Shown one piece after another: positions 47,115 through 53,600 of a stretch of 64,000 nucleotides of DNA; the first letter of the stretch is position 1; each line of letters begins with the position of its first letter. The notes beneath the pieces were generated by a model. It searched no databases, was not told where the DNA came from, and saw nothing but the letters and a program-made list of their open reading frames with translations. Origin of the DNA: Escherichia coli. Lineage in GTDB: Bacteria > Pseudomonadota > Gammaproteobacteria > Enterobacterales > Enterobacteriaceae. The stretch is taken from the NCBI RefSeq assembly GCF_003334305.1, contig NZ_QOWS01000005.1, one strand, 5' to 3'. The position numbers and the translations under genes were made by a program.

Positions 47115-48284
47115 ATGAAAATTAACTATCCGTTGCTGGCGCTGGCGATTGGCGCGTTTGGTATCGGGACAACGGAGTTCTCGCCAATGGGCTTGTTGCC
47201 CGTCATTGCGCGCGGTGTGGATGTCTCGATTCCCGCTGCCGGAATGTTAATCAGTGCCTATGCAGTTGGCGTAATGGTGGGCGCGCCGCTGATGACGCTT
47301 CTACTTTCTCATCGTGCCCGCCGCAGTGCGTTGATTTTCCTGATGGCAATTTTCACGCTCGGCAACGTACTTTCCGCCATCGCGCCGGATTATATGACCC
47401 TGATGCTTTCACGCATTTTGACCAGCCTGAATCACGGAGCATTTTTTGGTTTGGGTTCAGTCGTGGCCGCAAGCGTGGTGCCAAAACATAAACAGGCCAG
47501 CGCAGTTGCCACTATGTTTATGGGGTTAACCCTGGCAAATATCGGTGGCGTGCCGGCGGCGACCTGGTTGGGTGAAACCATCGGCTGGCGGATGTCATTT
47601 CTGGCAACGGCGGGGCTGGGAGTGATTTCAATGGTAAGTCTGTTCTTCTCATTACCTAAAGGTGGTGCAGGGGCACGACCTGAAGTGAAAAAAGAGCTGG
47701 CGGTATTAATGCGTCCGCAGGTGCTGTCTGCATTGCTGACGACGGTACTGGGAGCTGGTGCAATGTTTACTCTCTACACCTATATCTCTCCGGTACTGCA
47801 AAGTATTACCCACGCAACACCGGTGTTCGTCACGGCAATGCTGGTGCTGATTGGTGTCGGATTCTCTATCGGTAACTATCTCGGCGGCAAACTGGCAGAT
47901 CGTTCAGTTAACGGCACGTTGAAAGGCTTTTTGTTGTTGTTGATGGTGATTATGCTGGCAATCCCGTTCCTGGCCCGCAATGAGTTCGGCGCAGCTATTA
48001 GCATGGTGGTGTGGGGCGCAGCAACCTTTGCGGTCGTACCGCCGTTACAGATGCGCGTGATGCGTGTCGCCAGTGAAGCGCCAGGTCTGTCTTCATCAGT
48101 CAATATTGGTGCCTTTAATCTTGGAAATGCGCTGGGAGCAGCTGCTGGTGGTGCGGTAATTTCCGCTGGGCTGGGATACAGCTTTGTGCCGGTGATGGGA
48201 GCGATTGTCGCGGGACTGGCATTATTGCTGGTGTTTATGTCAGCCAGAAAACAACCTGAAACAGTTTGCGTTGCTAACAGCTAA
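47115..48284 (+). CDS. ydhP: MFS transporter
   Basis: 389-aa 12-helix membrane ORF. Confidence 0.85.
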   Translation: MKINYPLLALAIGAFGIGTTEFSPMGLLPVIARGVDVSIPAAGMLISAYAVGVMVGAPLMTLLLSHRARRSALIFLMAIFTLGNVLSAIAPDYMTLMLSRILTSLNHGAFFGLGSVVAASVVPKHKQASAVATMFMGLTLANIGGVPAATWLGETIGWRMSFLATAGLGVISMVSLFFSLPKGGAGARPEVKKELAVLMRPQVLSALLTTVLGAGAMFTLYTYISPVLQSITHATPVFVTAMLVLIGVGFSIGNYLGGKLADRSVNGTLKGFLLLLMVIMLAIPFLARNEFGAAISMVVWGAATFAVVPPLQMRVMRVASEAPGLSSSVNIGAFNLGNALGAAAGGAVISAGLGYSFVPVMGAIVAGLALLLVFMSARKQPETVCVANS

Positions 48285-48285
48285 T

Positions 48286-48318
48286 TAAACAAAAACGCAG
48301 AAGGATAACCTTCTGCGT
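48286..48318 (-). terminator. sodB intrinsic terminator (shared boundary with ydhP)
   Basis: ACGCAGAAGG-ATAA-CCTTCTGCGT with a T-run on the minus-strand side. Confidence 0.7.
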
Positions 48319-48365
48319 TACAGTTGCTGACAACGTGCGATTTATCTTGCCGAATGCGCTGTTAA

Positions 48366-48406
48366 CGCCTCATCCGCGTTGGCATGGTAAGCGAAGCGCA
48401 TCAGGC
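48366..48406. repeat. REP-like palindromic element in the sodB 3' UTR
   Basis: Minus strand GCCTGATGCGCTTCGCTTACCATGCCAACGCGGATGAGGCG resembles the E. coli REP consensus GCCTGATGCG...CATCAGGC. Confidence 0.45.
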
Positions 48407-48429
48407 AATGCTGCATTTGCCATCAGTTA

Positions 48430-49011
48430 TTATGCAGCGAGATTTTTCGCTACGAATTCCCAGTTCACCAGCGCCCAGAAGTGCTCCAGATAGCCAGGAC
48501 GTGCATTGCGATAGTCGATGTAATAAGCGTGTTCCCAGACATCAACGGTCAGCAGCGGAGTCGCATCGGTGGTCAGCGGAGTACCCGCGTTAGAGGTTGA
48601 AACGATAGCCAGTTTGCCATCGCTGTTTTTCACCAGCCAGGTCCAGCCAGAACCAAAGTTTTTGATCGCTGCATCAGTAAACTGCGCTTTGAAATCGGCA
48701 AAGCTGCCAAAAGATGCGGCGATAGCTTCAGCGACTTTTCCAGTCGGTTCGCCACCGGCGTTCGGTGCCAGGCAGTTCCAGTAGAAAGTATGGTTCCAGA
48801 CCTGAGCTGCGTTGTTGAATACGCCACCTTCAGAGCTGCGAATAATCTCTTCCAGTGATTTACCTTCAAACGCGGTACCTTTAATCAGGTTGTTCAGGTT
48901 AGTGACATAAGTCTGATGATGCTTGCCGTAGTGATACTCGATAGTTTCCGCAGAAATGTGCGGTGCCAGAGCATCTTTAGCATATGGTAGTGCAGGTAAT
49001 TCGAATGACAT
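48430..49011 (-). CDS. sodB: Iron superoxide dismutase
   Basis: 193 aa starting [32 protein letters not shown]. Confidence 0.95.
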
Positions 49012-49138
49012 TGCTACTCTCCTTTATTATTAATTTGCATACGTACAATAGCCTTATTGTGCGTATGGATAGGGTAGCAAATTAAAAGGTGAGACAAAAG
49101 ATGAACTTACCCTGTTGCCGTAACAACAGGGTAAAGTT

Positions 49139-49954
49139 TTAGCGAAGTGTTTTTGGGGTCATTACCCGACGAGCGCCAACATAGTGGCGCTGCCAGTAGT
49201 CTTCACTGAGAGAAGTGATTTGAATTTCCTGACCTGTGCGCGGTGACTGAATAAATTTGCCGTTGCCGACATACACGCCGACATGATCGGCTGTGCCGCG
49301 TCCCTGAGTACGGAAAAAGACCAGGTCGCCGTTTTTCAGTTCACTACGTTCGATTGGCGCTGCATCACGCAGGTGATACATTTCATTCGCCGTACGCGGA
49401 ATACGAATTTTCACCAAATCTTTATAAGCGTAATAAACCAGGCCGCTGCAATCAAAACCGGTACGCGGTGAGCTGCCACCCCAACGATATGGCTTACCAA
49501 TTTGCTGCATCAGTTTATTCATTGCCACTTTCGTAGCTTTTTGCACCTTCGCTTTGTGCGCGTCGGCAAGAGTTCCTGACGCGGCATTTTTGACTTTCAC
49601 ACAATGCGATTTATAGCCCTTACGTTTGGTACACTTTTCGGTAAAGCTGGCTGAGGCCGTTTTATTGACGGCGTGTTTGCTGCGAGTTTTGGCGTTTTTA
49701 GAAGCGGTAATGGAAGATTTTTTAACGGAAGAAGCGGTTTTGCTTTTGGTCGTACTTTTACTGGCGGCTTTTTTCGCTGTTTTCTGGGTCTTTTTGGTGG
49801 TTGCCGTGCTTTTCTTTTTATCTGCTTTTTTGGTGATATGAGTGGTAGCAGAACTCTCCCTGGCTTGCTTTGAAGCATGGGCCATAGGCGTTAAAGGCAG
49901 GGTGGTAAAAAGTAAAGCACAGAGCGTGATCGAAATACGGTTTATCCGCGCCAC
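49139..49954 (-). CDS. mepH: NlpC/P60-family peptidoglycan endopeptidase
   Basis: 271 aa: signal peptide, Lys/Thr/Ser-rich low-complexity linker, C-terminal NlpC/P60 domain with catalytic Cys (FDCSGLV). Confidence 0.85.
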   Translation of the reverse strand: MARINRISITLCALLFTTLPLTPMAHASKQARESSATTHITKKADKKKSTATTKKTQKTAKKAASKSTTKSKTASSVKKSSITASKNAKTRSKHAVNKTASASFTEKCTKRKGYKSHCVKVKNAASGTLADAHKAKVQKATKVAMNKLMQQIGKPYRWGGSSPRTGFDCSGLVYYAYKDLVKIRIPRTANEMYHLRDAAPIERSELKNGDLVFFRTQGRGTADHVGVYVGNGKFIQSPRTGQEIQITSLSEDYWQRHYVGARRVMTPKTLR

Positions 49955-50287
49955 TGAGCGTCCCTCTGTTAAGGCAGGTCTATCATGCCTGCGTCTGATT
50001 TACAAAACTTGATGATTCTAATGCATAGAAGAAGAGAAAGTTAATAGCTTTTATTGTTAAAAAATACGTTTCGTTGGCGAGCGCAAAAAAATGCAGCAGT
50101 GAAAGCTAAAAATGGTTATAAATACGCCAGTTTGCCGGCATCAGAGAAGAAACGAATATTTGAAATGCAACAAATAGAGCAAAGGGATAAAATAGCAAAA
50201 GCGTGATGAAAATGTTATTTTCCGATGCCGCACTGACCCGCTACAATGTCAGATTACTGCCGTAAAGAAGTTTGAGGAAGCAAGACA

Positions 50288-50635
50288 ATGAGCACCACTA
50301 TCGAAAAAATCCAACGCCAGATTGCTGAAAACCCGATCCTGCTGTACATGAAAGGTTCACCGAAACTGCCGAGCTGCGGTTTCTCTGCCCAGGCAGTCCA
50401 GGCGCTTGCCGCATGTGGCGAACGTTTTGCCTATGTTGATATTCTGCAGAATCCGGACATTCGTGCGGAACTGCCGAAATATGCTAACTGGCCGACCTTC
50501 CCGCAACTGTGGGTTGACGGCGAGCTGGTCGGCGGTTGTGATATCGTGATCGAAATGTATCAGCGTGGCGAACTGCAGCAGCTGATCAAAGAAACTGCCG
50601 CTAAATACAAGTCTGAAGAGCCGGACGCGGAATAA
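50288..50635 (+). CDS. grxD: Monothiol glutaredoxin
   Basis: 115 aa with CGFS active-site motif (PSCGFS). Confidence 0.9.
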   Translation: MSTTIEKIQRQIAENPILLYMKGSPKLPSCGFSAQAVQALAACGERFAYVDILQNPDIRAELPKYANWPTFPQLWVDGELVGGCDIVIEMYQRGELQQLIKETAAKYKSEEPDAE

Positions 50636-50650
50636 TCCGTCCTGCAATAC

Positions 50651-50690
50651 TGACGGATGCGAACGGGCATCCGTCAGTCCTTTCTCTATC
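50651..50690 (+). terminator. grxD intrinsic terminator
   Basis: TGACGGATGC-GAACGG-GCATCCGTCA followed by GTCCTTTCTCT; abuts the lhr stop codon. Confidence 0.7.
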
Positions 50691-53600
50691 CCCAATCCAG
50701 CCCTTGTGGCGAACTTGAAAATCCCGCCTCACGCAGCAGCGTAAACATCGGCGTTTGCCGGACCGGTAGAGCATTCACTTCTGTTAGCGTAAAGCGCAGC
50801 CGTGGTTCGCGACGCAGTGCGGTAGTCAGCGCGTGGAAAACCTCTGGGGCGAGTAATTCCTCTTTTTCCTGCCAGACCAGCATTTTTTTGCCACCTTGCG
50901 CCAGATAGAGTAACAATTTGCCGCCAGAAACGACCACCAGCGCACCCGCCCGACGCGTTGGAACCAGCGTTGCCGGATGTGCAGGCCAGGGCAGAAGATT
51001 TCCCCACACATTAGCCGGATCGTTGGCAGAGAGCGCCACTGGTGTATAGTGGCGCGTTTGCGTGGCTTGTGTCGCCAGATCGCGCAATCGGTCAATAGTC
51101 AGACGTTCAGCGAATTGCGCGCCACCCAGACCTTCTACAAAACGACCTCGCATAATTCGCCCGGAGTCTTCCATACTTCGACAAAGCGTTTGCATCGATG
51201 GAAACCCGCCAGGGATATTTTCGGCTATCACCGCCTGACGACTGATGATGCCGTAGCGGTCGAGCATATTTTCCGCCAGCGCCAGCATCCTTTCGGTATC
51301 GTTTAGTGGCTCCACCTGCAATAACGACCAGCGTCCAGCCAGATTTGGTGTGTTGTAAGATACCAGCGGCGAGACGGGTTGCGCATAGACAGGACGTCCA
51401 CGACGAGCCCGGTGACTGCGGCGAGTTGAGGTGCGTGCGTTGGAACTGCTGCGGGTGAGGGCGCGTAACGGTGCCCAAATGTCGCTGGTGATGACGCCTT
51501 GCCAGACCAGCGCCCATAACGCCTCTTGCAGGGCAGAGAGATCAACCGATTCGCCGATTTTGTCGCGTATCCGTTGGCTGATTTGTTGTGCAAACCAAGC
51601 TCCTCCGTCAGCCAGAACAGCGACTATCGCTTGTTGCAGCGCCGAACGATTCGCCTGATCCGCTTCGGCGGGAGTGAACGATTCTGCAGCATATTCCTGT
51701 AGATGCAGTGCCACCAGGCCGTCATCTTCACCCAGTTTTTTTTGCCCCGACCAGATAACCGCACCGGTTGCCAGTAATTCATCGAGCATTTCTGACGAAT
51801 AGTCGCGTACGCGGGCAGGCAGGATCTGGCTTTCCCAGAGTGAGGCGGGTAAACCGACTCCGGCAAGCTGTTCGATCACCCGCATCACGCCATCTACGCC
51901 CTCATAAACGCCTGGCGATGTTGAGGCAAAGAGCGCCGGGCTACCATCGGTGGCGGGTAATACGCCCTGACGTTCCAGCAGCAATCGCGCATAGGTCGTG
52001 GCTGCAACGGGACGCGTCGCTTCTCTGGCGGCTTGCAGCGAGCGCAAACGCAGACGACGAAATACTTCATCGCTCACCCAGATGTCTTGTTGCAGATTCA
52101 TCACCAGACCCTGTTCACGCAGTTGCTGAAGCTGCTCTTCGACAATGGCAATACCGAGACTAAACTCATGAGCCAGTTGTTCAGCCGTGACCAGAGCATG
52201 AGCCCGGAGATAGCGCAGAAAGAGATCGCGAAGCGGGTAACTGACTCTATGTAAATAAATCTCTGGCAATGACTCTGGTAGTCGTACGCCGAGGGCATCA
52301 CGCAGCCTGGCGGCATCATCCATACAGGCAAGACGCTCCTGTCCGCTAATCATCGCTGGGAAGATTCGTTTTACTGCAAGAAGATTTTCCAGATACGACG
52401 CAACCTCTTCACTGCTGCCTGTATGCCGTTGCGCCAGGTCTTCAACGGTCATTGGCCCCAGTTCGCGCAGCAGGTCGAACAATCCTTCTTCACCTTTCGC
52501 TCTTCTGCCAGGAGCCAGTCGTTGCAACTCTTCTTCCACCTGGCGAATGACCTGCGGGTCGAGTAATTCCCCCGGATCGACCTGTCCGAGTAGATTGCGC
52601 AGTAACTCGCTGTCCAGCGACAGTACGGATGCCCGGCGCTCTGCCAGCGGGGCGTCGCTCTGGTACATAAATTCCGCGACATAGCCGAACAATAAACTTG
52701 TGGCGAAAGGCGAGGGCGTAGTGGTCGTTACATCGGATATTTGAATTTCGCCACCGTTCAGGCGACGCATCAAACGTTCCAGTGCGGGAAGATCATAAAC
52801 ATCTTGCAGACATTCGCGTAGGGTTTCGAGAATGACCGGAAAATCCGGATATCCCTGAGCGATTTCCAGCAACTGACTGGCGCGCAGCCGTTGTTGCCAA
52901 AGCGGGGTGCGATGGCCCGGAGTGCGCCCCGGCATTAATAATGCCCGCGCGGCGCATTCGCGAAAACGGGCGGCGAAAAGTGCCGAGCTGCCTACCGCCT
53001 CGCGGACAATTTGCAGCAACTTTTCTGGTTCAAACAAAAAAATCGCGGCGTCGGGCAATTTACCATCAGTGTCAGGAATGCGCGCAACAATGCCGTCATC
53101 ACTGGCGACCACAGACGCGTCAGCGCCCCATAGGGCATGTATTCGCCCGGCAATCGCCAGCGCCCAGGGTTCATGCACCCGTCTTCCATAGGGAGAGTGC
53201 AAAATAATACGCCAGTCGCCAATTTCATCACGGCACCGTTCGAGGACCAGATGGCGACTCCCCGGAACGATGCCCGTCGCGTTGCGTTGCTCGTCAATCA
53301 ACCCCTGAATATTGGCGTTCGTATTTTCTTCTGCCAGCCACGGGGGAATAGTCCCGGAAAAGAACGCGCCATCCGCCAGTAAATGAAGAAAATCGCCGAT
53401 CATCTCGCCTAATTCAGCCGGACGTCCGTTACCTTCACCACGCCAGAAGGGGAGCCGGGCAGAACGACCCGGAGCAGGAGTCACAATCACCTGATCGCGG
53501 GTGATTTGCTGGATCCGCCATGAGGTAGCGCCGAGAGTGATAATGTCGTTCACCCGCGACTCATATACCATCTCCTCATCCAGTTCACCCACCCGCCGCG

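Follow-up and report, generated by a model that had tools for sequence, protein, structure and literature searches.

Three enzymes that open the cell wall of Escherichia coli for growth are redundantly essential; MepH (YdhO) is one of them, and its positioning and restraint are little understood. The literature assigns to it a DD-endopeptidase activity on 4-3 cross-links (PMC11211486, PMC8996183). The closest described system is MepS (Spr), a member of the same NlpC/P60 family that shares the physiological role of MepH and its control by Prc/NlpI (PMC8996183); in both proteins the export signal and the domain are separated by an unstructured segment. In MepS, a lipoprotein of the outer membrane, this segment has 37 residues and is not cationic, and its hydrophobic L24 and F31 bind NlpI (PMC11211486), whereas MepH has no lipobox, its linker is twice as long, with a net charge of +20 and almost no hydrophobic residues, and it has in addition a two-cysteine hairpin. 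We studied the mepH gene in a stretch of 64,000 nucleotides (nt) of E. coli DNA (contig NZ_QOWS01000005.1; this whole stretch is the window in what follows), and in particular the low-complexity linker of the encoded protein, which an earlier note on this DNA had pointed out. Earlier publications cover the gene, what its enzyme does and how it is controlled by proteolysis, and the linker is of a familiar kind; as a feature it is ordinary.

Our reading, to which we give a rough probability of 0.6, is that the linker is a disordered polycationic spacer selected for its bulk charge and length, and that it probably acts as an electrostatic tether to the anionic cell wall, a step that we infer. The parts of the gene on which this reading is built are the following (window coordinates; basis in parentheses):

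49139..49954, minus strand: mepH (ydhO) coding sequence, 271 amino acids (aa), peptidoglycan DD-endopeptidase (open reading frame, ORF, and 100% DNA identity to RefSeq mepH)
49874..49954, minus strand: apparent Sec signal peptide, residues 1-27, with R3 and R6 in the n-region, a hydrophobic core and A25-H26-A27 followed by S28, without a lipobox (read from the sequence)
49646..49873, minus strand: polycationic low-complexity linker, residues 28-103 (composition, entropy, AlphaFold2 and orthologue identity)
49655-49849, minus strand: lowest-complexity core of the linker, residues 36-100 (composition and entropy)
49586..49645, minus strand: two-cysteine motif, residues 104-123 (FTEKCTKRKGYKSHCVKVK), a predicted beta-hairpin that is not of low complexity (orthologue alignment and AlphaFold2)
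49166..49573, minus strand: lead-in helix, residues 129-149, and NlpC/P60 catalytic domain, residues 153-263 (Pfam, AlphaFold2 and invariant columns)

The ORF has 816 nt and begins with a GTG start codon. Its DNA was identical (100% over the 816 nt) to RefSeq genes that many complete E. coli genomes carry under the annotation 'peptidoglycan DD-endopeptidase MepH', in agreement with the earlier note, which had named the gene mepH. A match to mepH was present in 5426 of 5426 complete E. coli genomes, and it covered at least 80% of the gene in 5424 of them. One of the two genomes without a full-length copy is that of strain TUM2805 (NZ_CP128950.1), with a small chromosome of 4.09 Mb, where mepH is reduced to its last 116 nt, abutting grxD. 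None of the NCBIfam equivalog models reached its cut-off against the window MepH. The cleavage site of the signal peptide was placed after residue 27 from the sequence alone by the -3/-1 rule, which is established knowledge on signal-peptide cleavage. The cysteine C12 in the hydrophobic core of this peptide (T10-L11-C12-A13-L14; 49919-49921, minus strand) was invariant in the 68 orthologues compared below, and its context is not that of a lipobox.

The signal peptide and the start of the Pfam domain at residue 153 are separated by 125 residues. The span that the earlier note had described as a linker rich in lysine, threonine, serine and alanine (49609-49873, residues 28-116) contains 24 K, 16 S, 16 T and 13 A among its 89 residues, i.e., 77.5% K/T/S/A, compared with 29% in the rest of MepH and 25.6% across all long ORFs of the window (binomial P ~2e-24). 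The peptide quoted in the note was present verbatim, and the lowest-entropy stretch of 60 residues in the 64-kb window lies in this tract: 2.63 bits, with the next at 3.14 bits, when all ORFs of 150 aa or more were scanned (16,271 windows). With windows of 20 residues the entropy of the tract went down to 2.0-2.3 bits. The description thus holds for composition and complexity, but not for the C-terminal limit: the linker ends at about residue 103, and the last 13 residues of the span, 104-116, belong to a separate conserved two-cysteine element, the hairpin listed above. As delimited here (residues 28-103), the linker has a net charge of +20, with 2 acidic and 4 hydrophobic residues among 76, and an isoelectric point of ~11.2.

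Residues 28-103, the true low-complexity linker, are predicted to be intrinsically disordered. In an AlphaFold2 model built from an alignment of 91 sequences, residues 28-100 had predicted local distance difference test (pLDDT) values of 48-58 and no secondary structure, while residues 131-271 reached 94-98. An earlier AlphaFold2 run with a shallow alignment of close orthologues had given a mean pLDDT of 52, with 50-68 for the catalytic domain, so that order and disorder were inseparable, and it was repeated with the diverse alignment. The mean hydropathy of the linker was 0.36 against a charge-hydropathy boundary of 0.51, a clear position on a plot where the folded domain is borderline too, and we take it as supporting evidence only. 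A search of solved structures in the PDB gave no match upstream of residue 51, and all matches but one started at residue 122 or beyond; the lone match from residue 51 was a compositionally driven alignment to the linker of LytE itself.

Relative to the flanking domains the linker is fast-evolving in both sequence and length. Among 68 full-length orthologues from Escherichia, Citrobacter, Salmonella, Kosakonia, Enterobacter, Leclercia, Scandinavium and other genera, the linker had a mean pairwise identity of 0.36, the cysteine hairpin 0.64, the lead-in helix 0.74 and the catalytic domain 0.91, and the linker length took 19 distinct values between 63 and 95 residues. The charge was kept within narrow limits in the same proteins: net +15 to +23, or 0.25 +/- 0.019 per residue, with 4 acidic residues at most. 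Distant relatives came from searching 1.8 billion cluster representatives in full with HMMER. Those with a single domain and no lipobox had long linkers, unalignable to that of MepH, with net charges of +19 to +41, and some were made of different residues (K/R/P, or repeats of AKKPAAKK); in relatives whose lipoprotein signal was clear, the linkers were short and near-neutral. The distant MepH-like protein P0237 has a linker of true AKKPAAKK/AKKSSAKK repeats with a net charge of +30, a periodic version of the cationic-linker theme.

These data bear on a rival explanation, namely that the linker is a passive spacer whose K/T/S/A richness and drifting length are neutral, the outcome of slippage and mutation bias in a redundant gene where this segment is unconstrained. 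The low linker identity and the many indels among orthologues agree with such a spacer, as do the excess of nonsynonymous polymorphism in the linker and the viable natural deletion and frameshift alleles (see below), and mepH is indeed redundant with mepS and mepM (PMC8996183). Unconstrained drift, however, would be expected to let in acidic and hydrophobic residues, and the charge per residue and the scarcity of acidic residues were maintained despite a linker identity of 36%; moreover, the linkers of distant relatives are cationic even where they cannot be aligned, and the gene itself is kept in 5424 of the 5426 E. coli genomes. We therefore regard the passive spacer as rather unlikely, and favour a spacer that is selected for charge and length.

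Within E. coli the linker also varies in length, as the earlier note had anticipated for different strains: two alleles at ~65% and 35%, differing by 12 nt inside the tract, were accompanied by rarer variants, and the tract was thus not invariant in length. The sites involved in the window are:

49781..49787, minus strand: site of the 12-nt polymorphism, where one copy of the 7-nt direct repeat CCAGAAA is retained (alignments)
49700..49738, no strand assigned: 9-nt direct repeat AGAAGCGGT in two copies (49700-49708 and 49730-49738), flanking a rare in-frame deletion of 30 nt (261 aa, P0008), with the junction deduced from the variant protein plus the window DNA

The alleles were counted with a 200-nt query that runs from the part coding for the signal peptide into the tract and that matched 5424 complete E. 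coli genomes. Shorter megablast queries of 150 nt and 162 nt both missed the same 933 genomes, probably because masking of the A-rich query left few seed words. Identities to the 200-nt query were 99% or higher in 3546 of 5424 genomes, corresponding to the short allele of 816 bp present in the window, and 90-95% in 1875 of 5424, corresponding to the long allele; 3 genomes fell in between. Among 21 rows sampled from the 90-95% band, 20 spanned 212 nt and one 215 nt. As these genomes were not drawn at random from the species, the ratio of ~65:35 describes the sequenced genomes and not a population frequency.

DNA and protein alignments showed that the 12 nt of the long allele add Q-K-A-S after T56, which gives a protein of 275 aa instead of 271 aa. 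The long allele reads GAC-CCAGAAA-GCCAG-CCAGAAA-ACAG, and the short one is the exact product of a deletion between the CCAGAAA copies. Since the MepH of E. albertii (275 aa) has the four extra residues, the long form is probably ancestral, and the window would carry the deletion. Both alleles were found on K-12-like and on B2-like backgrounds of single-nucleotide polymorphisms (SNPs), and all four combinations of the indel with the SNPs at alignment columns 400 and 802 were present, which points to recurrent deletion or to recombination. A further 3 nt in strain YDC107 give a protein of 276 aa. Single E. coli database entries of 261, 262, 245, 244, 243, 241, 239, 214 and 210 aa are short of 9-61 linker residues, and several of the deletion junctions sit at short direct repeats. 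The polymorphic codons of seven intact E. coli alleles were 5 nonsynonymous and 3 synonymous in the linker, compared with 1 and 19 in the rest of the gene (Fisher p = 0.003); the sequence constraint on the linker is relaxed within E. coli. The 271/275-aa dimorphism is a handy natural marker, and its functional weight is probably small, given that it concerns 4 residues of a 76-residue linker.

The spacer selected for charge and length could work in the following way. The linker, residues 28-103, would join the processed N-terminus of a soluble periplasmic MepH to the two-cysteine hairpin, the lead-in helix and the NlpC/P60 domain. Selection would act on its bulk properties and not on its sequence, i.e., on a charge of about +0.25 per residue, on few acidic and hydrophobic residues and on a length of 63-95 residues. 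Under such selection the linker sequence would be free to change fast, and short segments would be gained or lost, through slippage or through deletion between short direct repeats, as may have given rise to the 271/275-aa dimorphism and the rarer variants. With its flexible reach, the cationic chain would serve as an electrostatic tether that keeps the unanchored enzyme concentrated on the net-anionic surfaces of peptidoglycan and envelope, and it would stand in for the lipid anchor of the paralogue MepS. Untagged MepH was found insoluble (Jeon and Cho 2022, PMC8996183), in keeping with a sticky polycation. If charge and not sequence is what the linker contributes, this would offer unanchored periplasmic hydrolases a simple, general means of remaining at their substrate, and it would explain practical problems such as the insolubility of the untagged protein (PMC8996183).

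A more ambitious version, which we put forward tentatively and consider possible but well short of probable, makes the linker the localisation device of MepH. Here a charge of about +0.25 per residue would give reversible binding to anionic peptidoglycan and envelope and replace the lipid anchor; it would set the local concentration of the enzyme and, through it, how active MepH is and how far it is exposed to Prc/NlpI. As long as charge and rough length are kept, the sequence could vary freely, even by frameshift, the +1 frame being also K/R-rich.

Several points weigh against a selected, tethering spacer. A search for literature on the MepH linker, on its polymorphism or on lysine-rich disordered regions of the periplasm returned nothing relevant in the searchable library, and the role as a tether is purely one that we infer. 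Rare natural alleles that lack 9-61 linker residues are viable, although the redundancy with mepS and mepM makes this observation weak either way. The constant charge density could partly reflect a mutational or codon bias shared among close relatives. Finally, the difference in linker charge between lipoprotein and non-lipoprotein relatives was borderline (Mann-Whitney p = 0.056) and is suggestive only, as it was obtained with a crude and noisy regular-expression classifier.

The comparison with MepS raises another possibility: that the linker is mainly a proteolysis handle, a segment engaged by the adaptor NlpI or by Prc in the way that the disordered N-terminus of MepS is engaged by NlpI. 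Prc degrades MepH and NlpI speeds the degradation (PMC8996183), and the paralogue MepS binds NlpI through its disordered N-terminal 37 residues, which fold on binding (PMC11211486). That binding, however, needs L24 and F31, two hydrophobic residues beside helix alpha-1 (PMC11211486), whereas only 4 of 76 residues are hydrophobic in the MepH tract, and no conserved hydrophobic NlpI contacts of the MepS type (as L24 and F31) were found in these 76 residues. The MepH segment that is positionally equivalent to the one in MepS corresponds to residues 104-128 and not to the K-rich tract. In addition, the protease Prc is C-terminal (tail-specific), and MepH with an N-terminal His6-SUMO tag was degraded by it without any adaptor (PMC8996183). 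A handle of this kind is in our judgement unlikely, somewhat more so than the passive spacer, and the charged spacer remains the reading that we prefer.

The two-cysteine hairpin that follows the linker sits where MepS has its NlpI-binding segment. C108 and C118 were invariant in the 68 orthologues, and the motif T-E-K-C-T-x-R-K-G-x-K-x-x-C-V-K was conserved across genera. AlphaFold2 gave pLDDT values of 67-77 to the hairpin strands, residues 104-109 and 117-122. The position of both cysteines in a hairpin of a periplasmic protein suggests that it may be stapled by a disulfide. We found no description of this two-cysteine hairpin motif of MepH.

The C-terminal part of the protein belongs to the NlpC/P60 family. 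Pfam PF00877 (NLPC_P60; peptidase family C40) matched residues 153-263 with E = 2.3e-36, over model positions 1-105 of 105. Relatives of MepH in the PDB numbered 39 at E < 1e-5, MepS included (2k1g, 7v6s and 8xud match residues 145-266). D168-C169-S170-G171 and H224 were invariant in 91 diverse sequences and Q236 was invariant in the 68 close orthologues, i.e., the residues expected of an NlpC/P60 catalytic site are in place. The third position of the catalytic triad, Q236 (49247-49249, minus strand), is Gln throughout the MepH orthologues. MepS has His at this position.

The earlier note had also called the DNA of the tract repetitive, a claim that did not survive inspection. Tandem Repeats Finder reported 0 arrays in the tract at a minimum score of 30, and a repeat search gave just two weak two-copy families of direct repeats. 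The tract is biased in base composition instead: its coding strand has 42% A and 14% T, compared with 26% A and 24% T in the rest of mepH. The longest homopolymer in the tract is A6, and three such runs are sites of frameshift:

49718..49723, minus strand: A6 run (K78-K79), extended to A7 in a frameshift allele (DNA of six independent Logan assemblies, otherwise identical to the window)
49769..49774, minus strand: A6 run (K61-K62), reduced to A5, with a frameshift, in strain PK8276, whose mepH carries a pseudogene annotation (sequence comparison)
49826..49831, minus strand: A6 run (K42-K43), reduced to A5, with a frameshift, in record LR536431, whose mepH carries a pseudogene annotation (sequence comparison)

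The two A5 alleles stand in complete genomes. The protein of the A7 allele (P0030) was found on 24 contigs, with 39 blocks indexed, and was confirmed at the DNA level in six assemblies (loci L010-L015). The product predicted by gene callers for this allele has 246 aa, begins in the +1 frame and has no signal peptide; the allele probably marks one lineage with an inactivated mepH. Four other database proteins (P0010, P0013, P0022 and P0061), in which part of the linker is read in the +1 frame, K/R/P-rich, and the frame is then restored, were not accepted as real alleles. Such proteins would imply two compensating frameshifts. At least P0013 and the related P0030 and P0127 carry accession numbers of NCTC long-read assemblies. 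Assemblies of that series are prone to homopolymer errors. The double frameshifts of the P0013 type are likely sequencing errors; if they were true alleles, P0010, P0013, P0022 and P0061 would be natural tests that the linker sequence is immaterial.

The frameshift alleles map to the three A6 runs and one of them, A7, recurs in at least 24 assemblies, as one would expect of a contingency locus, where A-runs or repeats switch mepH on and off or alter its length at high frequency. The tract shares with simple-sequence contingency loci the short A-runs and direct repeats that give indels and occasional frameshifts, but it differs from them in having no repeat array, runs of 5-6 nt, and variants that are stable lineage markers or rare events. 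Typical phase-variable tracts are longer than A6. Among the matches listed from the 5424 genomes, frameshifted copies were the single lowest-ranked row of each listing, and several of the frameshifted database proteins come from the error-prone long-read NCTC assemblies. With runs of at most six A's and no tandem repeat detected by Tandem Repeats Finder, the tract is therefore very improbable as a contingency locus.

The same base composition keeps other frames open across the tract. The earlier note had mentioned spurious long ORFs, and these were present:

49597..49878, minus strand: alternative-frame ORF on the same strand as mepH, 93 aa, K/R/P-rich, a by-product (ORF list and reshuffling)
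49626..49873, plus strand: overlapping antisense ORFs of 71 aa (49626-49841) and 66 aa (49673-49873), by-products (ORF list and reshuffling)

Three alternative frames that stay open for 66-93 codons across the tract could be taken as a sign that one of these ORFs, alternative-frame or antisense, is a real overlapping gene. We encoded the linker peptide anew in 2000 trials, taking synonymous codons according to the usage of the window itself, and 16-84% of the reshuffles, depending on the frame, had open runs as long as or longer than the real ones (21% for the 93-aa frame on the same strand). A control piece of the catalytic domain of equal length has antisense runs that are equally long, open for 74 and 90 codons. 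Furthermore, the alternative-frame peptide occurs in databases solely as a frameshift chimera fused to mepH. An overlapping gene is hardly credible on these figures. No stop codon, and no reverse complement of one, can form without a T on the coding strand. T is scarce there in the tract, and the alternative frames are therefore open; the ORFs are by-products of the amino-acid composition and of the T-poor coding strand. The note was thus right about the spurious nature of the ORFs, while their cause is this composition and not repeats.

The neighbours of mepH in the window are sodB (48430-49011, minus strand), grxD (50288-50635, plus strand) and lhr (minus strand). The order grxD-mepH-sodB was the same as in RefSeq records, which together with the sequence identity places the gene in the MepH/YdhO orthologue group. 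At 49106-49135 (minus strand), 4 nt downstream of the mepH stop codon, there is a 13-bp stem-loop with a T-rich tail, plausibly an intrinsic terminator between mepH and the promoter region of sodB. An Rfam scan of 47000-52000 gave no match inside the linker tract. Upstream of sodB, at 48982-49086 (minus strand), there was a weak Rfam match to the SodB 5' untranslated region thermometer RF02775, in the right position and far under threshold (E = 0.006; 31.4 bits, where the gathering score is 98). The sole sigma-70-like promoter match in the mepH-grxD intergenic region lies at 50015-50044 (minus strand; TTAACT, 18 nt, TAGAAT), ~60 nt upstream of the GTG, and such matches were no commoner there than in shuffled sequence.

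Beyond MepS, two groups of proteins offer a comparison for the MepH linker. The first is formed by the N-terminus of Pal (PMC12826056) and by LpoB, with disordered linkers that serve as length rulers or for reach; these are also low-complexity, unstructured periplasmic segments in which length rather than sequence is the functional variable, and for Pal a recent study showed that linker length matters (PMC12826056). Those segments are attached to a lipid anchor and bridge a set distance, whereas MepH appears unanchored and its linker is strongly cationic. For MepH, whose linker measures anything from 63 to 95 residues among close relatives, a role as a ruler would be conjecture. The second group comprises the C-terminal domain of histone H1 and the KPAA repeats of the AlgP type, polycationic disordered tails rich in K/A/S/T(/P) that bind polyanions by bulk electrostatics. 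The MepH linker resembles them in its residue set, positive charge density and disorder. It differs in location and order: the tails are cytoplasmic or nuclear, bind DNA and are often truly periodic, whereas the MepH tract is periplasmic and aperiodic, and any polyanion partner of it would be peptidoglycan or membrane surfaces.

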